A stretch of 64,000 bases of DNA from Ginglymostoma cirratum (Eukaryota). The translations under genes and the position numbers were made by a program. The stretch spans positions 1 through 64,000 of the forward strand of contig JAHRHZ010000235.1 in the NCBI GenBank assembly GCA_024137785.1, read 5' to 3'. Below the pieces are notes generated by a model. It searched no databases and was not told the origin of the DNA. It saw only the letters and a program-made list of their open reading frames with translations. This document shows positions 23,232-62,862 of this stretch, one piece after another (positions within the stretch are counted from its first letter, which is position 1; each line of letters opens with the position of its first letter).

Positions 23232-24065
23232 GGTCGGTGGTGTAGCAGTTGGTGAGCCTGGGAGCGACTTCACCCAGTGCGGGTGAATGTGTGCCCAGCA
23301 TGGGGGAAGGTGAGCCCTCACAAGGAAAGCCACTGTGGAGCTAATGCAGGCCCAAGGCTTAAGGCAGGACAATAATATTTAACTTTTAACTTTCTTTCTT
23401 TGCATTTCTACATTTTACTAGGAATAACTACTGGTGAATGTTATAACTGAATTCTTTATTTTTCTATTTTGATAGTTAAGATTTTGTAAACAGCTCCTTT
23501 TGTACTGAAGATGGATTTGGGAATGGTGACCTTGTACACTTTTCCCTGTACTCCTGTACCTCTGTACTTGAGTACATGTTACAGTAAAACCTAATTCTAA
23601 ATCTAAAATGTATGCTGTGCGATCCTGACTGATCCCTTCTCTGAACTAAGACCTCAGTCAGTTCAGTTTTGAGCTGTCACTGTGAGAAACAGGCGAAGAT
23701 GGGAGAAATGAACATGCCAATTGCAGCCTCCAGCATCTGGGATTGGCCTAAACTCATTTCAAACGTTACCCAGCAGAGACTGCACAGTACGATCCCACCA
23801 GCTGGGTCTGGACCAAAACAATGAAGAGTAAATGCCTCAGATTGTAATGATTAGGTCCTAGCAGTTTCCAGTTTCCATTCTGTTTGGAATCTTGGAAACG
23901 CAACAGATTCTAGATGAAAGGGATGATTTGAAAATGATTGATGTTAGGATCTAAATTCAAATTCACCAATCAGAGCAATCCTTTGCTGAAATAGAGCCAT
24001 TCAGCTGAGGGGAGGTGTGGTCAATTCTCAAAGCATTCAGAGACAGAGACTGAACCTTCTTCATC

Positions 24066-24071
24066 TTTATT
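24066..24071 (-). terminator. Candidate polyadenylation signal (AATAAA) of the light-chain gene
   Basis: tttatt on +, about 525 nt downstream of the C stop codon. Confidence 0.6.
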
Positions 24072-24596
24072 CCCTTTTCCAGATTGATATTGACAGAAAA
24101 AACACTGCAATTAACAGCCCAGACAGAGGAAGCTGCACAAATTCACAGCCACGATGGAGCTTGAGGAAAACACTTGTGGAGATTTTCTCAATAACACGAG
24201 AATCCTGCCCCTTTAAACAGTGACAAAACCTTAAATTGAAACTGACGGCTGAGCAGGAAGGAGGTCTGGTTCGCTGAAGCAGAGACTTCTGAGGTTCACA
24301 TTGTTTTTGTACAGCTGACAGTATTCTGCATCTTTGAGAGGTTTTACTTGACATCACAAGTCAACACTTTCCCCATCAAACACGCCCAGGACAGCAATAG
24401 CATGGTGTTAAATACAGAATAAAGCTCCCTCTACACTGTCCCAATGACCTGCCATAACCCCTGAACCTCAGAAGTCGCCGAGCCAGTCCCAAGAAGGAAG
24501 AGAGTTGAAATTCTGTGCTGACAATGACCTTTGTCCTGCTAGCTCAGCCCTGTTCTATTTAAAGTTGTGTCTACTCTGTGGACTGTCTCAAACACG

Positions 24597-24925
24597 CTAC
24601 ACACATTCTGATCTCCTGATGCTCTTGATGAGGGGAGAGGAGAGGGTGACGTGGGTGAGGGCACAGGAGAAGCGAGCGTTGGACTCCCAGTCAGAGGCAG
24701 AGAGGGTCAGCAGGCTGCTGACACTGTAGGTGCTGTCCGAAGCGCGCAGGTAGTTGCTGGTCTGAACCCCGTCCGAAATGACTGCACCGTCCTTCTTCCA
24801 CTGCACCTCCAGCTCTTCGGGAAAGAAGTGCTTGGCAACGCAAACCAGGGTGGCAGTGCCATTGTCCTGGACTTGCTCCGGGGAGGGGGGCAGCAGGGTC
24901 AGCTTGGGCTGAGACATCTCACGGC
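24597..24925 (-). CDS. Ig light chain constant (C1-set) exon
   Basis: Acceptor ttgtcattcag|gc in phase with J; S-REMSQPKLTLLPPS...ATLVC...W...YSVSSLLTL...W...FSCALTH...SECV-stop, with penultimate Cys for the H-L bond. Confidence 0.96.
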
Positions 24926-25249
24926 CTGAATGACAAGAGCAGCAATTTTAATTCCTGCCATTCAAAGAGAATTCAATTTACCAAACATTGATATGTAAAA
25001 TAATCCATCTGAACATTTGCAACCAATAGACAACAAACCGAACAAAAGAGTGAATGTACATTAAAATTCCTTTTTGATGGTTGATATTGGATACCCCCAC
25101 CCAGAGTAAATTCTGTGCCCTCACCACCCTCAGCGCTTCCTCCAAGTGCTGTTCAAACTGGAGGAGAGACTGATTTATCAGCCGAGGAAGACTAGTACGT
25201 GGTAATCAGTGGGAGGTTTCACAGAATCATACAGTACTGAAAAGCCCAT

Positions 25250-28200
25250 TCGTCCCATCAAGTCTGTACCATGAACGCTGCACTAAATCTGCTCTCCACC
25301 CACTTTCTATAACTGGGCCGATAACATTGAATGTTGCGATATTTCCGTGGCACATTCAAGTACGTTAGAACAGTTGTGGAATTACCCACCTGTTCCCTTC
25401 CCAGACAGTGTATGCCACTCCACAGCACTGGGTGAAAAAGCCTCAACCTTCTCTGTTCCAAAGAAAACAACCTGAGCTTATCCAGTCCCTCTTCGTCACT
25501 GAAACCTTCCATCCCAGGGAACATCCTGGTGAATCTCCTCTGCACCCCCTCCAGTACAATCACATCTTTCCTATAGTGTGGTGGTCAGAACTGCAGACAG
25601 TGCTTCAGCTGTGGCTTAACTAAGGTCCTGTACAGCTCCAACATACCCTCCTTGCTCTTATAATCTATATCTGAAATGATAAAGATGTGTGTCCCATATG
25701 CCTTCATAGCTGCCCTCTAAACCTGCTCTGGCACTTTCAAGGATCTATGGACAATCATCCCAAGATCCTACTGTTACTCTGAGATTCCTAGTGTCCTGAC
25801 ATTCATTGAGTACTCCCTTGTCTTGTTATTTCCTCTAAAGTGCCTCACCTCACATTTATCAGGCTTATATTCCAGCTGCCTCTGATATGCCCATCTGACC
25901 AATCCAGTTATATCCTCCTGTAACATAAAACCTTCTTCCTCACGTTCAAACTTCCGGCCAATGTTCATATCATCCACAAACTCAGTTATCCTCCCCTCCC
26001 CCATTCTCATCGACATTGTTCCTATATATCACAGTGAGGGAGCCAGCACTGACCGCTGTGACATCCCAATGCACACTGGGCCCAGTCACACAAACAGCCT
26101 TCTCCCGTCATCCTCTGTTACCAGTCACGAAGCCAACTTTGGATACAACTTGCTAACTTATACCTCATGGGCCTTTACCTTCTTTATCCGCCTCCCAAGT
26201 GGGACCTTGCAAAGGCCTTGTTGGAATCCACATAACCTACATCAACTGCACCCCCCGTCACCTACAAAACTGGTCACCTCCTCGACAAAATCCCACCAGA
26301 CTTAGTGGCCATGACCTCCCTCTGAAAAAGCCGCGTTGACTATCCCTGAAATGGAGATTCATTCCACCTTCAGAATTTTCTCCAATCACATTCCTAACAG
26401 TGATGTGAGACTCACTGGTTTCCTTGACCATGTTTGACCTGATGCCATGAGACATTGTCCAGAGTCAATGTTGGGGACTCCCAGAGTCATTCCTTCCCGA
26501 CTGTATCCCACTGTGTCACCACCTCTGTTGGGTTTGTCCCGCTGGTGAGACAGGACATACCCAGGGATGGTGATGGCGGTGTCTAGGACCTTGTCTGTAA
26601 GGTCCGATGCTGTGAGTATGACTGTGTCAGGCTATTGTTTGACTTCTCTATGAATTTGGCACTAGGACCTAGATGTTAGTAAGGATGGCAGAGCAGGGTA
26701 GACAGTGTGGTGTTTGATGGTGTTTCCGATGCCAAGGTCGATGCCAGGTGGATCGTCCGATTTCATTCAATTTTTGAGAGTTTTTGGTGATTTTTACAAC
26801 GGAGCAGCTCGCTCGGCCATTTCAGAGGGTGGTTAAGAGTCAGCCACGCTTCTGTGGGTCTGGAGTCACATGTAGGTCAGACCAGGTAAGGATGGCGGAT
26901 TTACTTCCCTGAGGGACATCATCCTTTATCTCAATATGTCTTTAACAAACCTCTGATCACTCACAGATCAGGAGCCACTATTTAAGAAAGGAAAAGTCAG
27001 GGAATTATAGAGCGGTGTACCTGACATTGATGGTGGGAAAGTTGTTGGAGACAATCCTGAGGGCAGGATTTACATGTGTTTGGAAAGGCATGGACTAATC
27101 AGGGATAGTCAACATTGCTTTGTAAGTGGGAAATCGTGTCTCACTAACTTGATTAGTTTTTTGTAGGAGGAATGAAGTAGATTGATGAGGGCAGAGCAGT
27201 GGACGTGACCTATATGGAGCTCAGTAAGGCATTCAGAAAGTTTCCTCACGGTAAGTCTGCATAGCGAGGTTAGAGGACATGGAATACAGGGTGAACCAAC
27301 TCTTTGGAGATGGAACTGGCTCGAAGGTATAAAACAGAGAATGGTGGTGGAGTGGTCTTTTCAAACTAGAGCACTGTGACCAGCGGTATGCCACAAGAAT
27401 CGGTGCTGGGTCCACGGCTTCTCATCATTTATATAAATGATTTGGATGTGAACATAAGAGGAATAATTCGTAAATTTGTAGATGGCACCAAAATTGGAGG
27501 TATAGTGGACAGCGAAGAAGGTTACCTCAGAGTACAAGGGGATCTTGTACAGAAGGGCCAATGGGCTGAGGAGAGTTAGATGGAATTTTATTTAGATAAA
27601 TGTGATTTGCTGCATTTTGGAAAGGCAAATCAGAGCAGGACTTATACTCTGAATGGTAAGGTCCTGGGGTGTGCTGTTGAACAAAGAAGCCTTGGAGTGC
27701 AGGTTCATTTTTCCTTGGAAGTGGAGTCATGGGTGGCTCGGATAGTGAAGACAGTGTTTGGTACGCTTCCCCTTATGAGGAAGGGGATTGGGTATATATT
27801 TGGATCATATTTGGTCATTTTCAAGCTGTATAGCACATTGGTTAGGCCACTATTGGAATACAATGGGCAATTATGGTCTCCTTGCTATAACAAGGGTGTT
27901 GTGAAACTTAACAATGCTTCGGTAAGATTTATAAGGTTGTTGCCAGGTTTGCAGAGATTGATCTATCGGGAGAAGCTGAAAAGGCTGGGGCTAATATCCC
28001 TGGGGCGTCAATGGCTCAGGTGTGACCTTATTGAGGTTTATGAAATAAACATGAACATGGATAGGATAAACTGGTAATGTCTTTTCCCAGAGGCACGTTT
28101 GTTAAAAACTAGAGGGCATTGGAGTAAGGTGAGAGGGGAAATATTTAAAAGGTACCTTTGGGGTAACATTTTCACGCAGAGGGTAGTGCGTGTATGGAAT

Positions 28201-28405
28201 GAGTTGCCAAAGGAAGTGGTGGAATCTGGATCAATTACAGAATTTAAAAGCCATCTGAATGGGTAGATGAATAGGAAGGATTTAGAGGGATATGGGCATA
28301 ATGCTGGCAAATGGCACTAGATTTATCTAGGATATGGGACAGCATAGATGAGTTGTGCCGAAGGGTCTGTTTCAGTGCTGTACTTCATCTCTGTGACTCT
28401 ATAAC
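25250..28405. mobile_element. Cluster of decayed CR1/LINE fragments in the J-C intron (25250-26400 minus; 26975-28405 plus)
   Basis: RT motifs GMPQESVLGP..YINDLD..KFVDGTK; LEGVQRRFTRM. Confidence 0.85.
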
Positions 28406-29008
28406 TCGATAACTTTACCTAAGAAACTTGGAGCAGACATGGATCAACATACTTCAGGAAGGGTGCCCGTGTAGGAGGTTCTAGATTTCATTTCAAACCT
28501 TGCTGCCCAACACTGGGCTGATGTCAAGGGTGAGGCTGCAATGAGTCTCAGTGTCTCGGGGTCAGGCGGGGTCACTGCTCCTAATGACCCTGTGACCCCT
28601 GGAAGGTGAGATCATATAGACAATGGTTGGAGGTCAGTATCAGGAGGCTCTGACCTCAAAAAGAACTTGCATTTATTTAGCACCCATCCCCAACTCAGGA
28701 TGAATTTTGCCCCTCACTTCTGATTATGCACAGGAACATCATACAGAACTTCTATAATGAGCAGGGAATCAGATTTTTAGGGATGTTGATTAACAAATAA
28801 AGATTGACCTGGACACCTGGGAGACCTGTCCTACTCCTCTAATAGTGCCTTGGCATCACTTTTTGCCCCCGAGAGGGCAGATATCAGATCGTGCCAACTG
28901 AAAGACAGTCCCAGAGATAAAAGGTACTGCAGATGCTGGAGAATCCGAGATAACAAGCATGGGGCTGGATGAGCACAGCAGGTCAAGCAGCATCATAGGA
29001 GCAGGAAA

Positions 29009-34400: not shown

Positions 34401-35520
34401 ATGACATGGGATTCAGAGGGAGCTAGCCAGTTAGATGCAAAATTGGCTTGAAGATGGGAGACTGAGAGTGGTGGCAGAAGGTTGCTTTTTGGACTGAAGG
34501 TCTGTAACCAAATGTGTGCCACAAAGATTGGTGCTATGTCTACTGCTTTTTGTCCTTTAAATAAATCATACAGTTGTTCAATTTACAGATGAAAGCAAAA
34601 TGTGGCACAGTGGATAATGTAGAATGTTCTTTATTATTTAACAGATGAGAACATTGATGGGTATGCAGCATTTATTGTCCATCATTAACTGCCCAGAGGG
34701 CAGTTAAGAATCAGCAACATTGGTGTGGGTCTGGAGTCACATGTAGGCCAGACCAGGTCAGGATGACAATTTCTTTCCCTAAAGGACATGAGTGAATCAG
34801 GTTTTTTTTTTCTGACAATTGACAATGGATTCATGGTCATCATTAGGTTTTAATTCCAGATATTTACTGAATTCTGATTCCACCATTTGCCATGACAGAA
34901 TTCGAACCTGGGTACCCAGAATGTTATCCTGAAGCCTGGATTAACTATCCAGCAATAATACTACTAAACCATTGCGTACCCCATGTCAGAGTACAACGGG
35001 GGCAGACCAGATGGGGCAATGGAACGTGAATGTTTTGTTGAGAGGGCAGAAAATATTCCCAAAGATGATTCCAGGGATGAAGGATGTCGTTTATCATGAT
35101 AGTTTGGAGAAGTTGGGCCAGTCTTCCTTGAAGAAGAGAAGACTGTGAGGAGATTTGTTCGAGGAATTCAAAATCAGGAGGGGTCTGGACAGAGTGAACA
35201 GGAGAACATGTCCCCACTCATGAAAGGATTGAAAGCAAGAAGCCACAGATTGAATGTAATTGGTAAAAGCAGCAGAAGTGAGATGGAGAAAACCATTTTC
35301 AGCCAGCGAGTGGTTAAGGTGTGGGATGCACTGCCTGAGAGTGTGGTGGAAGCAGCTTCAATTGAAACATTCCGAAGGGAATGAGGCTGTTATTTGGAAT
35401 GGAACAATATGCAGGGTGACAGGGAGAAGGCAGGAGAATGAAACCCAGTGAATTGCTCATTTGGAGAGCCAGTCCGGACAGGATGGGCGTAATGGCCTCC
35501 CTGTGCACTGTAACAATTCA
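31500..35520 (+). mobile_element. Long decayed CR1 (ORF1 esterase-like + ORF2 pieces), antisense to the Ig gene
   Basis: SRMVCCLPGARVEDV (ORF1); EDFNYLNIDW; KPPGPDQMYPR; RT remnants. Confidence 0.85.
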
Positions 35521-35958
35521 GTGAGTGTGTAATTGAGCAGCGTTAAAGCTGGGGGAGGTGGGAGCTCGGTGTCTCACTGTGCTGCTGCTGCTGCTGCTGG
35601 GGTCAGCGAGATCAGAGACTGGGACAGGGAGCCAGAGCTCACATCAAACTCTGTCCGTGTCCGTCACACTGAGACTGGCAGGAGGCTACTCACTGATTTC
35701 ACTCCATGCTGCAGGAATGCGACCACAGGCTGCAAACGGGCATCCTCCACACGGTGAGTAAAACATTTACTGACTTACATCTTGCTGCTTCAAGGGGAAA
35801 ATGGAACTAAAGAAATACAGCTGGGCCCCCTGTTAGACACAGTGCTCGTCAATCAACCATTTCATTCTCTGCAGCTTCCCACTAACACCTTCAGCACGTG
35901 TGTTTTAGAAAGTTTCATTATCGAAAGTGTTAATAACGGAGGATTGAGGTTGACTTAC

Positions 35959-36288
35959 TCAGTCTGAGCTTGGTTCCATTACCGAACGTAACCGGGTTGG
36001 CTTCATTTTGCTGACAGTAATAGTCAGCAACATCCCCTTCCTGTACATTACTGATTGTCAGAGTGAATGTTTTATCATATCCACTGCCACTGAATCGCTC
36101 GAAAACTCCTGTGAATCGAGTTGTTGCATCGTAGATCAGGAGAGAGGGTTTCTGTCCTTCTCGCTGCTGGTACCAAGCACAGTCATTATCAATCTTTTGA
36201 CTGGCTGTACAGGTGATGGTTGCAGTCTGGCCCAGTTCCACTGACAGCACGGGGGGAGATTGGTTCATGGTGATGTCCCCACTGATAC
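35959..36288 (-). CDS. Ig kappa-type light chain, germline-joined V-J exon
   Basis: Acceptor cccctcag|gt; reads GISG-DITMNQSPPVLSVELGQTATITC...WYQQ...DYYC-QQNEANPVT-FGNGTKLRL; canonical Cys, Trp, YYC and FGxG; donor a|gtaagt; 330 nt, phase 1-1, no RSS between V and J. Confidence 0.96.
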
Positions 36289-36474
36289 CTGAGGGGTCAG
36301 ACAGAAACACAGTGAAGTAAAAACTGTCACAGAAAGAGCCTGTCAAATGAGTGATTGTTGGAGGCACTGAGGATTCCTCTGGTTTCAGCATTTTCCATTC
36401 AATCACAAGTCTGTGGAATTGGAGTGAAATGAAGATCAGCTAAAGATTCAAGGTGGAAGGAGAGAGATTTGTAC

Positions 36475-36523
36475 CTGCGATGCAGAATGCCAGAGGCCAG
36501 ATCAGCTGGATGTGTGAAATCAT
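36475..36523 (-). CDS. Ig kappa-type (type III/NS4-like) light chain, leader exon
   Basis: acc-ATG at 36523; encodes MISHIQLIWPLAFCIA-G (hydrophobic signal peptide); phase-1 donor gcag|gtacaa; 186-nt intron to the V exon. Confidence 0.93.
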
Positions 36524-36582
36524 GGTGTGTGCTCCTGTCCCAGTGCTTGGTTCCCGATAAACTCTCCCTTCACTGAGCCCTG

Positions 36583-36682
36583 CTTTATAAAGCGGCAGCC
36601 TGTGAGAGTCTCACTGGCTGTTCCTCAGTATGTAAATTGCATCAGGCAGAGAGAGAGCCACATCAGACCCTCGCACTTCCTC
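36583..36682 (-). promoter_or_regulatory. V-gene promoter: TATA, variant octamer, two Ets/PU.1 boxes
   Basis: ctttataaag 36583-36592; ATTTACAT (7/8 octamer) 36630-36637; GAGGAA 36621-36626; GAGGAAGTG 36674-36682; all within 160 bp of the ATG. Confidence 0.75.
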
Positions 36683-37209
36683 TTCTTTATTTCACTCTCT
36701 CTCTCCCTCCCTCAATCATTCACTCCTTCTCTCTCACAATTTTTAGTTGTTTTTAGCCTTTTTGGGTTTTAGCATCGCTGCCTGCACCAGAATTAACTGC
36801 ACATCCCCGAATGCCCAGAGGTAGTTTCGACTCACCCACATTGCTGTAGGTGTGGAATCACATGTATTCCTGTCCAGGTAAAAAGGCCAGTTTCCTTCCC
36901 TGAATGACATTTGTGAATCAGGTGGGTTTTAATGATGATTTTATGGTCACCAGAGACTTTTAATTTCCAATTATTTCTATTAAATTCATGTTCCACCACC
37001 TGTTAAGGAAGAATATTATGCTCCCCAGAACATTCCCTATGTCTCTAGATCAATGATCCAATGATAATAGGCCGTCACGTCCTTCAGTCCCTCACAATCA
37101 CCTTTCCCTCTTTCTCCCACGCACACCATTCTTTCACACTCACTGTCATTCACTCTCTTTTATCTGTTTCTCTATTTATTTCTCTCTCTCTCTCTCTCTC
37201 TTTCTGTCG

Positions 37210-38965: not shown

Positions 38966-41611
38966 CTCTCTGTGTCACCCAGCCACACTGCTCTACCGTC
39001 TCTCTCTTTCCTGTCTTTCTCCATCTCCATAAACCTTTCCATCTGTCTGTCTGTGTCAGTGACAGAGCCTCCTTCTCTGTCTGTCTGTCTGTCCCTCTCT
39101 CTATCTGTCTTTCTCTGAGTTTATGTCTCTTTTATTTATCACCGTCCAGCTCTCCTTCTGTATACCTTCCTTTCTTTTTCTCCCTCTCTCTCACTGTTGC
39201 TCTCTGTCCGTCTTTCTCTGTGTCTCTGCCCCTCCTCTCTCTCTCACTTTCTCTCTCTCTCTGTCTCTGTCTCTGTCCTACAGGCAGTGAGTCCCAAATT
39301 CCCATCACCCTCATTCTTGTATCTCTTGGTGTTTGTCCTTCTGACAGCTCACCTCTCACTCCCACCCTGCCTCTCCCTGTCATTCTCTAACTGATCGCTA
39401 TACCACGTTTTACTGCTGGGCATTGGAACATTGTGTCGTGGGGCAGCAGTTAAATGCCTCATCTTTCTGTCTCTGTCTCACTCACAGTCTCCTGGTCATT
39501 CTCCATTTCTGTCACCGTCCCTCTCTCCTTCCTTTTCTCCCTTTCCACCCATCTCCCAGTTGGATATCGTTAAATGCAATGTAAATCTCCCTGAGATCTT
39601 CCTCATCAGTAGATCAGAAACTTTCACCAGTAAACATGTGACTCCTTTACACTGGGCCCTCCAGTGTCTCAGATTCAAACGCCACATTCTCTTCATCACG
39701 TAGGCCTCTTATTACTATTTTCACAACATTATCCATCTCTGCGCTCCATCAGCCGCATGACCACGGAGGCGTTATTCCTGTTCATCCCAACTCCAACCTC
39801 CATGATTTTAATGTCCTATTCCAGATTTCTTAATTCATGCTTCATAGATCCCAACATGTCTGAAATGGTGTGGTCACCTCCAAACATTGCTCCAGAATGA
39901 TCGCTGGCCTGTCTGGCCGTACTCCCAACCTCATTCACATCCTACCCGACCTCACTGCCCTACAAATGCCTCACAGCCTCCCTCCTCCCTCTCTCCGTGT
40001 CCTGTTGCAGACTCACATTCCCTCCATCACCCTTCCACCTCCTGTCCATTGCTGCTTCCTCCATCCCACCATTGACAGCAGAACCTCCAGACACCTAGAG
40101 CCTGCTCCCTGACCTCCAGGCCTTCATCCCTGCCACTCTCCAGGTCGCATTCTCCTCCGTCAAACCTTGGAGATTGGTGATGGCACACACAATCAAATAT
40201 CTAGCCTTCCACACAGAGAATAGGGAGGTGGGTGAGGTAGCAAGGTACTGGCAGTCTCCATAGAACTGACCCCAGCATGAATTGTCCCTCGGGAGGGGAG
40301 AGGGAATGTTCAGGGTCCTGAGCTCCATTTCCTAGCCCAGGTAGTTTGTCTCCCAATGAATGAATGAGATGTCAGTTTGGAGCCCAGGTTAGGGGCAGTC
40401 TCATGCTGTGGACACAGGTCTATAAGAGGGAATTGGAGATCGAGCTGAAAAGGAAAGCTTTGCTGGGTTATGGGGAGAGAGAGGGGCAGTGGGACTAATA
40501 GGATCACTCACAGTCATGATGGTTGTGCTATTGAATATGATGGTCAGTCAAATCACTTTTAGTTCTCTGTTCCTTTATCATTGATTTACTGACTAATTCC
40601 TCATCAGTAAATCTAGTCTGGCCTGTTCCCAGAGCTGGTTCAAGAGCATATTTCTTCAGAAAACACTTCTGTAAACTGGGTTGTCTGTTTCTCCCAGTCT
40701 TTGTGTCAAGGTGAGACTGAAGTGTGTGGAAGCTCTTATACAGCACAGACAGAGATCACTGAGCCTTTTGTGACTGTTAGTTCAATCAGTCCAATGAGTC
40801 CCATTTGCCCAGCTCTTCCTGTATAACCCTGTAATTGTTTCCTTTCCAGCGCTTTCTCCAATTTTGAAAGTTGCTGTTGAATCTGCTGCCACTCACCTTG
40901 CAGACAGTCAGCATGAACCCGCTGTATAGAAATGTTCTTGTCTTCTCTCTTGTTCTTTCGACTCGTTCTTAAATGTGTGCCCTCTGGTTACTGACCCTCC
41001 TGTCTATAGACACAATTTGTCCTGTATTTTCTGAATCCAAACTCTCTGAATTGGAACCCCACACTGAGTTAGACCTATTTACAGCACAGGAGGAGAGCAA
41101 GCAGCCTGTCAAGTAAATGTTGTCATTTCATGGAGCAATCCAGTCAGTCCCAGCCCTCCCCTACTCGAGCCCCAGAGCCTTGCAGATTTTGTTACATCAA
41201 GGGCCCATCTAATGTGCAATTACAATAACTGATTGTCTTCACTTGCCTCACCTCAATGGGCACTAATTTCCAAACCTTTACCAATAGCTGCTTCAACAAT
41301 AAGTTCTTCTTAATATCCCATAACTCTTGATGAACAAATTGGAAGGTACTCTCAATGTGAAGGTGTAATGCTGTCTCCACAAGGACTGTGCGGTGGTCAC
41401 TCTCACTGATACTATCAGGGCCAGCAGGCAGGTTGGTGAGGATGACAGTGACTATGCTTTTCCCGCTTGTTGGTTCCCTCACCACCTGCCACAGGCCAAT
41501 TCTAACAGTTCAATCAGGTGCAACTTGACCAGCTTCCTCAGGAATGATGCTTCTGAGCAACTCTTGATGGTGGACTTTAAAGTCCTTCCCCCACAGCATA
41601 TCCTGCATTCT

Positions 41612-41970
41612 ACAAAATGATCAGAGGATTAGATAGGGTGGACAGTGAGAGTCTTTTTCCTAGGATGATGACGTCGGCTAGTACGAGGGGGCATAGCTGC
41701 AAATTGAGGGGTGATAGATTTAAGACAGATGTCAGAGGCAGGTTCTTTACTCAGAGAGTGGTAAGGGTGTGGAATGCCCTGCCTGCCAATGTAGTTAACT
41801 CAGCCACATTAGGGGCATTTAAACAGTCCTTGGATAAGCATATGGATGATGATGGGATAGTGTAGGGGGAATGGGCTAAGATTAGTTCACAGGGCGGCGC
41901 AACATCGAGGGCCGAAGGGCTTGTTCTGCGCTGTATTGTTCTATGTTCTATGTTCTATGTTCTATGTTCT
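41612..41970 (+). mobile_element. Young CR1 3' end nested in an older LINE
   Basis: Same family as 12904 and 55925 copies; (gttctat)n tail. Confidence 0.9.
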
Positions 41971-42464
41971 ATCCTTCCCACCCTCAGTGCTCCCTCCAAG
42001 TATTGTTCAACATGGAGGGGGACTGACTGGTCGTTTTGTATTGGAGGGGAGTGCGGTGCTATGTAGCAATCAGCAGGAGGTTCCCTTCCCCATGTTTGAA
42101 CTGCTGCCATGAGACTTCAGGGTTCCATGGTTAATGGGGAGGACTCTCAGGGAAACATCCTTCCGACTTTGCACACCACTGCATTGTTGACCCTGCTCGG
42201 TCTATCCTGCCAGTTAAAAACTGAATGAGAAAACAATTCTGTGCATGATTCACGGCTTGGAGACAGAGCTGCTGCTGGATTCTATTTCTGATCTCCGAGT
42301 ACAGGCGATGTGTGTTTGTGAGAGAGGGACTGACACTTTTTTCATCACTATTCTGCTTCCGCTAAATAAATATCCCCAAACCAGGGAATGGCCTCCTTCT
42401 GTGCTGTTAGATTTCAGGAAGTGCAGACAGTTTACAGTTTTCTCCCATCTCAGTAACAAACTTC

Positions 42465-42628
42465 CAGCTGCTCCGAGCTCCTTCTTTCACTTCCTCTGGT
42501 AGTGAAATTTCAACCTTGCGATCTGACAGGCTTTGCAGTTATTTTTTCCACTGGGGCTTTCTGCTGTGGTCAGAATCTCTAATAATAAGTGTCCAATCAG
42601 TGACAATCACAGCAGCTAAGAGCAGTCA
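42465..42628. promoter_or_regulatory. Candidate upstream enhancer (E-box, EICE, RUNX, CCAAT)
   Basis: CAGCTG 42465-42470, TTTCACTTCC 42485-42494, TGTGGT 42565-42570, CCAAT 42593-42597; all kept in the inverted paralog at about 62418-62581. Confidence 0.5.
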
Positions 42629-45269
42629 AGACTGAGGAGCCAGGCTCACTGGGAAACACATTGGGAAGATCAAAACCATTCTCTTCAGCTCCCGATACAA
42701 ACTCCATGCCTCTCCCAGGGCATTGTCTGCTGCTCAACTAGATTCTTTACTACCTTGGCCTTATCTTTGAGTGTGATCTGAGCCCCACATCACAAAGATC
42801 AGCGCCTGAAAATCTCAGCCGTGTCTTTGGGACTCCAAATGTGACCATTCCAATGTTGTCCTGGCCCACATCACAGCCATTGCCCTCCATAAACTTCAGC
42901 TCATCCCAATCTCTGCTGCCGATATCCGAACACACACACCAAGCCCCGTTCCCCATCACCCCCTGTGCTCACTGATCTGCATTGGCTCACGGCCCATCAA
43001 TAACTCAATTTTCAAATTCTCATCTTTGTTCTCATATCCCTCCCTGTCCTCCACCCTCCCAATCTGTCTGACCTCCCCTGAGCCACCTCACTCTGTGGTC
43101 AACAATCTTTGATATATTGCAGTCTATTCCTTCATACATGTCATTGAGAAACACTGTGAAAAGTTGATGTCCCAGCGCAGGTCCCTCAGGACAACAACGT
43201 GCACATCTTGTTCATTGGAGTACACACACATTACCCCTCCACTCCAAGCTCTGAACTAATTCCTGACCCAAAGTAATTATGTTTCTCAAATTCCATCTGT
43301 AGCAATGTTTATGAACAGTCTCTCAAGCTGAGAATCTCAGAACAGTAGTAGACCATTCGGCCCTTCGAGCCTGCTCTATCATTCAATATGATCATGGCTG
43401 ATCATCCAACTCAGTCCCCTGTTGCTGCTTTCTCCCCATAAACTTTGACCCTTTTAGTCTTAAGAACTACGTTGAGTTCCTTCTTGAAAACATTCAACAT
43501 GTTGTGATCAACTGATTTCTGCGACAGAAAATTACACAGGTTTCCCACTCTCTGGGTGAAGAAACTTTCCTCTATCTGAGTCCTAAATGGTCTTTCCCAT
43601 TTCCTTAAGCTGCAATCCCTGTTTCAGGACTCTCCAGTCATCAGGAACATCCTTCCTGAGTTTATCCTGCGTTGTCCTTCAATGTGACTCACCTCAGTCG
43701 TCTAAACTCCAGTGAACTTAGTCCCAATCAATCCGGTTTCCCATCAGGTAAGAATGCTGTCATCCCACGAATCAGTCTGGTAAATCTTCGCTGCCCTCCG
43801 TCCACAGACAGAACATCCTTCCTCAGATAAGGAGATCAAACTGCACAAAATAGAATCATAAAATCACACCGTACAGTAGGGGCCCTTTGGCCCATTGGAT
43901 CTACACCAGCCAAACTGCGCTAAACCTACACTAGCCCCACATTCCAACACGAGGCCTATAGCCTTCAATGCAAACACATTTCAAGTGTTTATCCAAGTAT
44001 GTTTTAAAGGTAGTGAGGTTACTCACCTCAACTACACTCCCAGGCAGTGCATTCTGACTGCCCACCATCCTCGAGGAGAAAAACATTTTCCGCAAATCCC
44101 CTCTGAAGCTTCTGCCTTTCACATTGAATGTGTGTCAACTTGTTATTGGCCCTCCGACTAAGGGGAACAGCTGCTTTCCATCCACCCTGTGCATTTCCCT
44201 CATAACCCTATGCACCTCAACATGTCCCCCTCAACCTTCTCTGCTCCGAAGGAAACAACCTGATCTTATCCAGCCTTCTTCATCACTGAAATGCTGCATC
44301 ACAGACAACATCCTGGTGAATGTCCTCTGCAACCCCTCCAATACATTCACATCCTTCCTATAGTGTGGTGACTAGATCTACACACAGTGCTCCAGCTGTG
44401 TTCGAAACAAAGTCCTGTACAGCTCCAACCTACCCTCCCTGCTGTTATAATCTATACCTGAAATGATAAAGGTAATATCCTGCACAGCTTCAGAGCTGCC
44501 CTATTAAGCTGTTACATCTTCCAAAGTGCATCACTTCACATTTATCATGGTTAAATTCCACCTGCCTCTGATCTGCCCATCTGACCAATCCGGTTATATC
44601 CTCCTGGAACATAACACCTTCTTCCTCACTGTCAAACACCTGCCAAACTTCATGTAATCCACAAACTTAGTTATCAGCTCCCCCTCCAAAAATCCCACCT
44701 GCATTGCTTCAAGATATCATGGAAAATAAGGAGCCCAGCACTTATCCATCTAGAATGCCACTGTGCACTGTACTAGACTTATTCAACTTTCTGCCCCACC
44801 CTGTGTCTCCTGTCCCTGAGCCAGTTTTGGATTGAATGCTCCAGGTGTGATCTCACTAAACCCCTGTACAATTGCAGCAAGAAATCCCTGCTCCTGTACT
44901 CCAATCCTCTCACTATGATGACCAACATACGATTTACCTTCTTCACAGCCTGCTGCACCTGCATGCTTATTTTCAGTGACTGCTGTACAGGGACACCCAG
45001 GTCTCATTGCACCTCCCCATTCCCAATCTATCACCGTTCTGATAATAATCTGCCTTCCTGTTTTTGTAACTAAAATAGGTAACCTCACATTTATCCACAT
45101 TGCATTTCATCTGTCCCTCACTCATCTTGTCCAAATTACACTTACACTGACGCATCTCTGCATCCTCCTTACAACAACCCCTACCACCCAGCTTTGTGTT
45201 TTCTACAAACTTGGAGATATTTCTGATAAGTTCCCTCATCTAAATCATTAACACACGTTGTGAATAGCT

Positions 45270-48945: not shown

Positions 48946-51900
48946 AAGTGACAGAGAAGAGCACACAGACACAGAATTTATAGGGAGAGAGATCAAGGGC
49001 AGAAAGATCGAACGATCAAAAGATCAGACAACTGGTGCAAGTGGAATGTCAAATAATAAGCTTTGCAGGTGACCAACAGTTATTAGGCGGTGTGAGTAAA
49101 ACGTCAACGGCTGAATAACAAGTGAAGAGATGACCTATAACCCGATTAAATGAAGCAGAGAGATAGTTACAAAAAAAACTATAAGTAAGGTGTTACTGGA
49201 GATAAACCAAATGATTGGAATAACCTGCTAGGCATAAGAGTTGCATGCCGAGGGTCTAACCAAACTAATGATTAACCCAAAACTGTACAAACTAATAAAC
49301 GTAAAGAGATCATATCAATTTTTCAAGGTGATAGTGCCAAAACAGAACAGGTAAGGAAGGTTTTACAGACACAGAACAGTGTGGTGTAGTCACATGTAAG
49401 CAACGAACCCAAGATCATAATTGAGACCGTCTTCATGGGTATAGAACTTGGCTATCAGTTTTTGCTCGGCGATTCTGCTGTGTATCTAGTGTGTATCTCA
49501 AAGTCCACCTTGGAGAACACTTACCCAAAGATTGGAATGTCCTTGACCACTGAAGTGTACGCCCACTGGGAGGGAACATCCCTGTCTGGCGATTGTGTGG
49601 TGTCCATTCATCCGTTGTACAATCTACATTGTCTCGCCAATATACCATGCCTTAGGGCATCCTTTCCTGCAGCTTATCAGATAGACAAAATTGGCTGAAT
49701 CACATGTGTACCTGCCGTGTACGTGGTGGGTGGTGTTCCTGCGTGTGATGGCAGTGTCCATATCAGTGATCTGACATGTCTTGCAGAGGTTGTCATGGCA
49801 GGGTTGTGTAGTGTTGTCCTGAAAAATGGCCTGTTTAAGGTTTGGTGAGAAGTGGAGGCGTAGGGATGATCTTGGTGAGAGGCTCATCTCATCAATGACA
49901 CGTTAAAGTCTGCGAAGAATATGTCGTAGTCTCTTCACTCCCTCAGCTTGATTTGTATGCTTAAGCTGGCAGAAGATGCATTAATGCCAGATTCAGCAGC
50001 CCCGCTCACAAGATAATGCAGAACATCACCCAAGCACAATGCAACACCATCCGTGCTTTCAAGTCCAATTGCAATATTGTTATTAAACCAGCAGACAAAG
50101 GAGGAGCCATCGTCATAAACAATAGAATGGACGACCGCAAGGAAGAGTACCAACAACTGAACAGCCAGGAACACTACAGACAATTATTCTCCAGCATCTG
50201 CAGTACCTTTTATCTCTCACACTACAGACAATTACCTGCCGCTGCAACCAAAGAACACACACATCAGCTCAACAGACTGATCAAGATCTGTAATCCAGAC
50301 GTTCAGAGTATCCTGTGCATTCTCATCCTGTGTACTTCTCGCATAGGAGACGACTTCTGCCTTCCGATGATACACAGAGCCACAGAACACTTGGACGTCG
50401 CATTGTATCAGGCAATGGGATGCTGTGTGGGAACTTCTCTGGCTATGTCAAGGGCATCCTGAAGCCCACTGTACAAGGAACCCCTGGCTTCTATCATGAC
50501 GCTTTCTTATGGAAGCTCAGAACCTGCAAACCAGTCGAACCAGGAGCATTCCTCATCATGATGGACGTTTCGGCACTCTACACCAGCATCCCCTCTGATG
50601 ATGACATTGCCACAAAAGCCTCAGTACTCAATATCAACAACTGCCAATTTCCAGACTCTATCCTACAACTTATCCACATTATCCTCGACCACAATGTCTT
50701 CACCTTCAACAGCCAGTTCTTCATCCAGACACATGTAACAGCCATGGTGACCAAATTTGCATCCTAATATACCAACGCTTTCATGCACAAGTTTGAGCAA
50801 GACTTCTTTGCGGTACAGGACCTCCAACCAACCCTATACACCAGATACATGGATAACATTTTCTTCTGTTGGACTCATGGCGAGTAACCACTGAATCAAC
50901 TAGATAGCAATATCAACAAGTTTCATCCCACTATCAGACTTACCATGGACTCCTCTTCAGAGTCAGTATCATTCTTAGACAAACGCACTTCCATCAAGGA
51001 CGGACACCTCAGTACCTCACTCTACCGGAAGCCAAGGATAACCTCATAATGCTGCACTTCTCTAGCTTCCACCCTAAACCTGTTAATGAAGCTATCCTTA
51101 ACGGACAAGCCCTGCATTGCGTTCCTCCTCTGCTCAGATGAGAAGGAATGTGATAGCCACCTAAAGATTTTAAAGTGCATCGTCATAAGGATGGGATACA
51201 ATCGTCAACTCATTGATCGCCACAGTGAAAAACGGCAATGACCTCCTCAATATACAGAACCAGGATACAACTGATAGAGTACCTTTCATAAAACAGTACT
51301 CCCCCGGGGCAGAGAAACTATGTCACATTCTTTGCAGCCTTCAACATATCATTGATGATTAGCATCTTGCCAAGATCTTCCCACCAAGATCACATTTAAA
51401 CGTCTACTTCTTGCCTTCAAACAACCTTCAGCGTGTCAAACTTTAAACAGACCATTGTTCGCAGCAGACTACCCAGTTTTCAGGACAACATCGACCACAA
51501 CACCACACAACTCTGCCATGGCAACCTTTGCAAGACATGTCAGATCATTAACGTGGATACTGCCATCACATGTGGGAACACCACCCAGCACTTACGCAGC
51601 AGATATTCATGTGAATTGGCCGATGTTTTCCATCATATGCTGCAGGCAAGAATGCCCCAATGCATGGTATATTGGCAAGACCATGAAGACACTATGACAA
51701 TGGATGAATGCACACCATGCAATAATCACCAGACAGGGATGTTCCCTCCCATTCAGGGAACACTTCAGTGGTCAAGGACATTCAGCCTCAAATTTTCAGG
51801 TAAGTGTCCTCCAAGGTGGACTTTGAGATACACAGCAATACAGAATTGCCGAGCAAAAACTGATAGTCAAGTTCAATACCCATGAAGATGGCCTCAACTG

Positions 51901-51985
51901 TGATCTTGGGTTTGTGTTGTGCTACGTGTGACCACACCACATTGTTCTGCATCTGTAAAACCTTCCTTTCCTGTCCTGGATCTGA
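48946..51985. mobile_element. Second, older Penelope-like family: inverted 3' copy (to about 49930, minus; tail continues 47020-47107) plus decayed RT-GIY-YIG (about 49990-51985, plus)
   Basis: IKPADKGGAIVI, MDVSALYTSIP, CKTC..CDSANFVYLISCRKGCPKAWYIGET. Confidence 0.85.
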
Positions 51986-61560: not shown

Positions 61561-61844
61561 GTCTGTAGATAATTTCATGAGTTTTTAATTTGTAATTTTA
61601 AATTTCTTGCTGTTTTAAATCAGCAAAATATTTCAGTCAAGGAGACAGAGAAGGCTCCATCACAGGAGGAGGCTGTTCAGCCCCTCGTGTCAGTGCTAGC
61701 TGTTTACTAACCTCATTCACAATGAACATTGCAGGTGAATGTTTGTTGTCGGGAAGTGATTGCATCTGTTTTACTGAACAGAATGACTGACAAATATGAT
61801 CTGATCACAGAGAATCAGCATGGATTTAAAAAGGATCAAGCATC

Positions 61845-62862
61845 TGTGCTCGGACCTCAGCTTTTCACAATAATTCTCAACGACTTGAATGAAGGATCAG
61901 AGAGCCAAACATCCAAGATTGCTGTCCACACTGAGTGAGGCGGCTTGGAGGAGGTGACAGAGATAGGGAGGGTGGGGGACAAGGAGGGGTTTGAGAACAA
62001 GGATGAGAATTTGAAAATCGAGGTGTTGCTGGACTGGGAGACAACGTAGGTCAGTGAGCAGAGTGGTGGGGGTGGTGGGGGTGGGGGGGAATGGGACTTC
62101 GTGCGAGTTTGGATTTGGGTACACACTTTGGGATGAGCTGATTCTTACAGAGGCCCGTGGCTATGATGTGGGCCAGGACAACATTGGAATGATCACATTT
62201 GGAGTCCCAAAGACAGGGCTGAGATTTTCAGGGGCTGATCTTTGTGATGTGGAGGATGTGGGGCTCAGATCACACTCAAAGATAAGGCCAAGGTAGTAAA
62301 GAATCTAGTTGAGCAGCAGACAGTGCTCAGGGAGAGGGATGGAGTTTGTACCGGGAGCTGGAGAGGATGGCTTTGATCTTCCCAATGTGTTTTCCAGTGA
62401 GCCTGGCTCCTCAGTCCTGACTGCTCTTAGCTGCTGTGATTGTCACTGATTGGACACTTATTATTAGAGATTCTGACCACAGCAGAAAGCCCCAGTGTAA
62501 AAAATAACTGCAAAGCCTGTCAGATCGCAAGGTTGAAACTTCATCAAAAGAGGAAGTGAAAGAAGGAGCTTGGAGCAGCTGGATATTTGTTACTGACATC
62601 ACAGGAGGAGGCCATTCAACACATTATGCCTGTGAGTAATACAGGTAGTCCCACTGTCCCTCTCTATCCCCATAACCCAGCAAATCTTTCCTTTTCAGTT
62701 CCACCTCCAATTCCCACCTGTAGTCCTGGGTCCACAACATTTTACTGCCCCTAACCTGGGCATCCAATTGACATCTCATTCATTCATTGGGAGACAAACT
62801 GCCTGTGCTGGGAAATTGAGCTCAGGACCCTCATTATTCCCTCTCCTCTTCTGAGGGACACT
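61845..62862. repeat. Inverted segmental paralog of Ig-upstream DNA (42450-43180 and 40283-40545)
   Basis: Shared unique sequence and shared L2/CR1 junction; 80-bp identical core. Confidence 0.9.

Follow-up and report, generated by a model that had tools for sequence, protein, structure and literature searches.

A low-copy conserved non-coding element, and candidate enhancer, upstream of sigma-2 light-chain clusters in Ginglymostoma cirratum

Introduction

Known immunoglobulin light-chain enhancers are situated either within the J-C intron or downstream of the C exon, and not upstream of V. In human, mouse and chicken Ig-lambda enhancers, E-box, NF-kB, MEF2 and PU.1-IRF4 sites are conserved; these sites are required for the targeting of hypermutation, their mutation impairs activity, and the chicken 3'Core carries putative CBF and C/EBP sites (PMC3972084). 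For sharks, published work describes the NS5 (sigma-2) isotype at four loci, in joined and split forms, and kappa (NS4) at 60-70 loci with a promoter octamer (PMC2435157, PMC5192425, PMC2193156, PMC5985310). Rare assembly of promoter and enhancer has been proposed as the basis of exclusion (PMC2435157). The parts of PMC2435157 and PMC5192425 available to us describe no upstream regulatory element for the NS5/sigma-cart/sigma-2 loci, and the open literature searched, including the accessible parts of PMC9936319 and PMC6795676, describes no shark Ig enhancer.

In this study, we characterized a non-coding module found upstream of light-chain genes of Ginglymostoma cirratum, which bears on how a shark B cell activates one among many small Ig clusters. 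What is new is a defined 210-bp candidate enhancer with five named sites, the motif grammar being already known from tetrapods. The locus also appears to illustrate cleanly how selection and gene conversion can operate on adjoining pieces of DNA.

Results

The window, that is, the whole stretch of DNA that was analysed, comprises the initial 64 kb of contig G000:C235, which is 235 kb long, in the 4.36-Gb G. cirratum genome. It contains a single light-chain cluster (cluster A) on the minus strand, with the following parts.

24600-24925, minus strand: C exon of cluster A, intact
35959-36288, minus strand: VJ exon of cluster A, germline-joined, in-frame and sigma-2-type; presumed target of the module
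36437-36680, minus strand: V promoter and leader exon of cluster A, with the ATG at 36523, TATAAA, imperfect overlapping octamers and a PU box

Because the second copy of the module (copy B) is inverted, a second V was predicted about 6 kb past the right end of the window. This V was located at G000:C235:68559-68846 on the plus strand, 5.7 kb beyond module copy B, and clusters A and B are arranged head to head, as an old duplication. Cluster B (G000:C235:68313-77459) is split, with an RSS12 after V, an RSS23 before J and about 370 bp between V and J. It is a pseudogene, with two TGA codons in V, one TGA in C and a broken J heptamer (CATAGTG). The promoter, C exon and module of cluster B have been well preserved, which suggests that its function was lost recently. 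The V promoter and leader are 92-94% alike between the paralogues. A perfect octamer is absent from the V promoters of both clusters, and the PU box is found in copy A only. The promoter at window 36580-36690 has two overlapping one-mismatch octamers, which lie inside a 48-bp run that is identical in both paralogues.

The original prediction had called these genes kappa, an assignment that proved to be wrong. A genome-wide search found four close C exons with 82-100% amino-acid identity (36 matches, with 150 of 180 candidates scored) instead of the large family of kappa (NS4), and neither promoter has the perfect octamer. The C domain is 87% identical to its nearest experimentally named relative, a nurse shark "lambda-like" chain that we take to be NS5; database relatives are mostly auto-named "kappa-like". 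Nurse shark NS5/sigma-cart/sigma-2 loci likewise have four C exons, and we found here one germline-joined in-frame VJ and one split cluster, with RSS12 at V and RSS23 at J. The V-J gap of the split cluster, about 370 bp, compares with about 390 bp implied by published PCR sizes for the nurse shark loci (PMC2435157, PMC5192425). Four C exons, the named relative and the imperfect octamers, taken with the published locus counts, thus identify the linked genes by their sequence as sigma-2-type.

Other light-chain genes were also found in the assembly. A further sigma-2 C exon is present at G000:C235:118635-123896, within a direct duplicate, 5.3 kb long and 86.8% identical, of window 23610-28912, and this exon shares 102 of 108 residues with the named nurse shark chain; another is present at G000:C124:2028831-2030190. 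For neither of these two was a V or J found in the readable assembly. At G000:C99:1.30-2.27 Mb, seven V matches of at least two subtypes run through J and hence are germline-joined; these genes are probably of the lambda (NS3) type.

The module itself was delimited as follows.

42447-42660, no strand assigned: conserved non-coding module copy A, candidate enhancer; 94% identical to copy B over 214 bp and retained in three other organisms
42549-42628, no strand assigned: 80-bp core, identical in both paralogues
62386-62599, minus strand: module copy B, 5.7 kb upstream of the cluster B V pseudogene, which lies beyond the window

What had been observed beforehand was confirmed in part: the 80-bp identity, the position and the presence of the motifs in both copies stood, but the isotype, the placement of the motifs and the description of the flank did not stand as given. 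Alignment of the paralogues showed that the 80 bp are matched exactly (42549-42628 against 62497-62418), and when one mismatch was allowed the run reached 121 bp (42508-42628). Across the 10 collinear blocks of the duplication (7,184 aligned columns), this was the longest identical run, followed by runs of 61 bp in the adjacent L2 piece and 55 bp in the C exon. The top 200-column window, at 42508, had 193 matches, compared with 189 in the C exon and 188 in both the promoter and the J-C intron. When matches were shuffled within the aligned blocks, the probability of a run of at least 80 was 0.0008 over all blocks (mean identity 83.6%) and 0.0068 over the five best blocks (87.2%); for a 200-column window with at least 190 matches it was 0.0002 and 0.034, respectively. 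Syntenic repeats were 72-81% identical between the paralogues and unique blocks 85-87%. The module is thus the best island of the duplication, the three others being the promoter, the J-C intron and the C exon, and sliding-window identity was not uniform along the duplicated DNA. The flank had been called visibly more diverged; in 100-column windows this was true of its distal part (64-80%), but not of the near L2 piece (about 42650-42890), which was 87-93% identical and contains the 61-bp run.

The start of the module is 5.9 kb upstream of the leader ATG, in agreement with the distance of about 6 kb noted before. In a genome-wide DNA search, copies were not dispersed: both of the two candidates matched, and each was 5.7-5.9 kb upstream of a sigma-2 V. 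A 29-base pattern with at most three mismatches also gave two matches, versus none for the control. The same tool returned at least 40 matches for the distal L2 piece, so the module is not a common repeat, and the dispersed copies of an interspersed repeat were not seen. Two is a lower bound, because the readable assembly yielded no V-J region for either of the remaining sigma-2 clusters. The expression "per-cluster" therefore holds for two sigma-2 clusters but does not extend to another type of light chain, as a search of about 159 kb around the seven germline-joined C99 V genes, in 16 stretches, gave no homologue of the module (best E = 0.09). Rfam gave no match to a known structured RNA family at E up to 1 in 40000-43500, and no open reading frame runs across the module. 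A third copy of the upstream flank, at G000:C235:92937-95217, was considered as a further carrier and rejected: the module is missing from it, and the adjacent DNA yielded no V. A 102-bp piece there (93% to window 61628-61729) is joined close to a CR1-like tail. A mobile unit made of a "head" and an L2 tail was ruled out by copy number.

Five motifs were recognized in the module.

42465-42470, no strand assigned: E-box CAGCTG, putatively E2A-type; in both copies, without listed change in the other organisms
42485-42496, minus strand: EICE GAGGAAGTGAAA, putative PU.1/Spi-B-IRF composite element; without listed substitution in organisms A, B and C
42565-42570, plus strand: RUNX/CBF motif TGTGGT; without listed change in the other organisms
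42579-42588, no strand assigned: MEF2 motif CTAATAATAA, fitting YTAWWWWTAR on both strands; inside the 80-bp run
42593-42600, plus strand: CCAATCAG, putative NF-Y-like CCAAT box, which failed a strict NF-Y pattern

All four motifs named in the original prediction (EICE, TGTGGT, CAGCTG and CCAAT) were found in both copies of the module. As to their relation to the 80-bp run, TGTGGT and CCAAT are inside it, but EICE and CAGCTG are outside by 55-85 bp. The MEF2-type site CTAATAATAA had been overlooked. The 10-mer GGAAGTGAAA of the EICE, at 42485-42494 on the minus strand, fits GGAAnnGAAA and is present in both copies. When 405 kb of Ig-locus DNA was scanned, the EICE 12-mer matched twice, once in each copy of the module. 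Relaxed EICE sites numbered 32, of which these two alone had MEF2, RUNX and E-box motifs within 200 bp. EICE, MEF2, RUNX and E-box, a set chosen after the sequence was seen, occurred together in none of 20,000 shuffled versions of the module and in one of 3,759 background windows, which was the module itself. Genome-wide, EICE followed by MEF2 was not enriched (34 matches versus 41 for a reversed control), so the EICE-MEF2 pair by itself is meaningless; none of the 34 was on another contig holding Ig C-like matches. No NF-kB pattern matched in 42150-42950. Two further candidate sites were discarded, namely a second ETS core at 42416-42423, which is broken in organisms A, B and C and missing from copy B, and a second CAATCA at about 42604-42609, which is altered in organism B. 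The case for a regulatory element would rest on the motif cluster, conservation and position combined.

Conservation was examined in three other organisms (A, B and C), which supplied the 20 of 24 listed runs containing part of the stretch. Contigs of all three span the junction between the module and the L2 piece and carry the 9-bp insertion of copy B, and thus derive from the same locus family. Differences between organisms are those listed (40 of 156 rows), with changes near contig ends excluded, and some flank contigs may be paralogues. Among these differences, the module and all five motifs were retained in organisms A, B and C. In organism C, no change was listed for the 80-bp core, compared with 17 across 112 bp of L2 flank (Fisher p = 1e-4). 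For organism A, the changes listed for its main contigs numbered 0/78 in 42551-42628, versus 14/125 in L2 (p = 0.001), 18/203 in the CR1 piece (p = 0.005) and 7/219 in the flank formed by the inserted element; the last contrast was not significant (p = 0.20), and organism A may thus simply be a close relative. One organism A contig had 16 changes over 42420-42580. In organism B (run X12), 4/80 listed changes in the core did not differ from 7/147 in the near flank (p = 1.0), but did differ from 20/128 in the distal piece (p = 0.025); its listed change nearest to the MEF2 site is at 42589, just outside. Conservation of the core thus exceeded that of neutral flanks in organism C and against two of three flanks in organism A, but not against the near flank in organism B. 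Among the differences listed, none of 28 variable positions fell in the 37 motif bases (p = 0.003), and when the 16 positions varying in the other organisms alone were used, p was 0.034. On these sequence comparisons, the evidence for constraint appears good but not uniform.

The DNA on either side of the module was assigned to the following features.

40526-42385, no strand assigned: low-copy insertion splitting a CR1-like tail, in copy A only; 75-77% match at G000:C267
42657-43095, plus strand: 5'-truncated LINE fragment, presumably of L2 type as judged from its C-terminal motif; decayed frame with DLHWL..HQ..NFQIL, the distal part being a dispersed repeat
42724-42784, no strand assigned: probable gene-conversion tract, 61 bp identical in the A and B paralogues
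61844-62385, minus strand: L2 and CR1 fragments flanking copy B

Of 158 candidates for the L2 piece, 40 were scored, which gives at least 40 matches; most were 70-82% identical over its distal half. The CR1-like tail is continuous in copy B; the insertion in copy A, inside which lies a young CR1 piece (41610-41962), is shared with organism A, one of whose contigs bridges the insertion junction, and is absent from copy B. Moreover, divergence in syntenic repeats is greater between the paralogues than between G. cirratum and organism A. Given this divergence and the common insertion, the duplication is likely older than the split from organism A, and states shared by the paralogues would then result from later gene conversion. 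Within 42724-42784 there are six sites at which both paralogues agree but organism A differs, among the differences listed; organism B differs at all six and organism C at four. These six sites, together with 42694, show the pattern of gene conversion, whereas 42575-42656 has no such site. In 42657-42723, copy B is near the outgroup state (two listed changes) and copy A has eight. Interlocus gene conversion between inverted duplicates gives the same combination of identity within a species and difference between species as is seen at 42724-42784, but leaves the invariance of 42549-42628 between species unexplained, since conversion within a species cannot produce it. The original prediction had offered selection or gene conversion as alternatives; both seem to have acted, at different places, with selection on the core (organisms A and C, more weakly B) and conversion in the adjacent L2 piece. 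Conversion about 100 bp away may have contributed to the 80-bp run.

Two more matches to the flanks were rejected as further copies of the module. What matches the upstream flank at G000:C267 proved to be an interspersed element and lacks the module; beside it, at G000:C267:546500-546720, is an exon that to us reads like Nup62. The third match of the L2 piece (C124, 84%) is also without the module and has no Ig gene within 40 kb. This isolated piece (G000:C124:1449703-1449912), the start of which is nearly identical to window 42797-42877, is possibly a moved fragment of the light-chain locus. Elsewhere in the window, at 49343-51978, an inverted pair flanks decayed reverse-transcriptase and GIY-YIG-like frames, presumably a Penelope-type element with inverted ends.

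With regard to transcription, none of the listed runs containing the stretch is an RNA record. In one same-species single-cell run, of which about 6% was read without a positive control, no read matched 42400-42720. Contigs of runs X12, X14 and X18 cover the module; that these runs derive from RNA is a guess.

Discussion

The module is a real, low-copy, conserved non-coding element that is linked to sigma-2 clusters. Its closest described counterpart is the tetrapod Ig-lambda 3' enhancer (human and chicken IgLambdaE, mouse E2-4/E3-1; DIVAC elements), which likewise has CAGCTG, MEF2 and PU.1-IRF4 sites within about 200 bp (PMC3972084). The order MEF2, EICE, E-box on the V-sense strand is the same, and the EICE core AGGAAGTGAAA is common to the shark module and the mouse lambda E2-4 site; the MEF2-to-EICE distance, however, is about 82 bp in the shark versus roughly 45-55 bp in the tetrapod enhancers (PMC3972084 and its Fig S4). 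The chicken 3'Core resembles the module in its E-box, putative CBF (RUNX), CCAAT-type and PU.1 sites but has three E-boxes, has its CCAAT-type site assigned to C/EBP, and is downstream of the gene (PMC3972084). Three of the four Ig-lambda enhancer sites are thus found in the module: the PU.1-IRF site, with MEF2 and the E-box near it, is present, and NF-kB is missing (PMC3972084). The module belongs with another isotype (sigma-2) and is neither intronic nor, like the tetrapod lambda enhancer, 3' of C, but 6 kb upstream of V. Homology in the spacers was not evident by eye.

We infer from these data the binding factors, the cell type, the target gene and a role as enhancer rather than promoter. 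In our best estimate, with a probability of roughly 0.6, the module would be a per-cluster B-cell enhancer like the tetrapod Ig-lambda enhancer, kept by purifying selection, with gene conversion beside it. The original interpretation as a lymphoid element under selection or conversion is supported in part; neither of the two outcomes named beforehand as refuting it, copies scattered without regard to Ig clusters and identity that is even along the duplication, was observed. PU.1 or Spi-B with IRF4 or IRF8 would occupy the EICE, and E2A, RUNX, MEF2 and a CCAAT factor the neighbouring sites. Once assembled into a complex, these factors would reach across 6 kb to the V promoter, where there is a TATA box and only an imperfect octamer, and this contact would open the cluster for transcription and V-J joining. 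The complex might also target hypermutation, as do the chicken and mammalian lambda enhancers. It counts against an enhancer that copy B is upstream of a pseudogene.

The same features could also arise without any function, if the module were a tract of gene conversion joining the inverted paralogues, in shark DNA that evolves slowly, with motifs that arose by chance. Conversion did occur nearby, as the six paralogue-shared states at 42724-42784 that are absent from organism A persist despite the 15-25% divergence of the repeats. Moreover, a single high-depth contig of organism A covers 42575-42799, the L2 part included, which suggests homogenised copies (depth is not copy number); the near-identical L2 piece on C124 stands isolated from any Ig gene, and organism B has no contrast between core and near flank. 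However, organisms A and C differ by 8-15% in the converted L2 piece and show no change in the core. Within-species conversion does not give such a likeness between species, and variable sites avoid the motifs; we therefore regard this explanation as unlikely. Another explanation retains the constraint but takes the module to be a lymphoid promoter that drives, from upstream of the cluster, a sterile or antisense non-coding transcript; its core promoter elements would be the A/T-rich MEF2-like site together with the CCAAT box. A CCAAT box is a typical promoter feature, the conserved CCAATCAG is about 60 bp before the L2 junction, and the conservation applies to a promoter as well as to an enhancer. 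Yet a transcript towards V would need to cross 6 kb of repeats that differ between the copies. Given also the statement of a review that promoters appear only with V segments (PMC5192425), we consider a promoter improbable.

A constrained element could serve yet another role: it might act between the two opposed clusters as silencer or insulator, be an enhancer in myeloid cells, or belong to an exon of a non-coding RNA. Conservation is silent on the sign of regulation and on cell type, and EICE, RUNX and MEF2 motifs are active in myeloid cells too. Constraint in copy B, furthermore, runs about 65 bp into L2 (two changes in 67 bp versus organism A), where no motif was found. The presence of one copy per cluster, in a similar place and orientation to V, speaks against such roles, as do the absence of any Rfam match and of an open frame across the module, and we judge them very improbable.

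A more far-reaching version of the enhancer reading joins all of these elements: a per-cluster upstream enhancer in the MEF2-EICE-E-box code of tetrapod Ig-lambda, with co-opted L2, homogenised by conversion, the rare activation of which would lead to the use of one cluster at a time and to hypermutation targeting. We put this forward tentatively, as unlikely in its entirety. If it were true, the light-chain enhancer code would be older than the split of cartilaginous and bony fish, and rare activation of a 210-bp unit would let a shark B cell use a single cluster.

Finally, a second non-coding island was observed in the J-C intron, at window 35425-35720, with 92-95% identity between the paralogues and a RUNX motif at its edge. 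Its first 135 bp belong to a repeat, of which C123 and C124 carry unusually similar copies (87-93%); beyond these 135 bp, matches were found in the two clusters only. This island is a possible candidate for an intronic enhancer.
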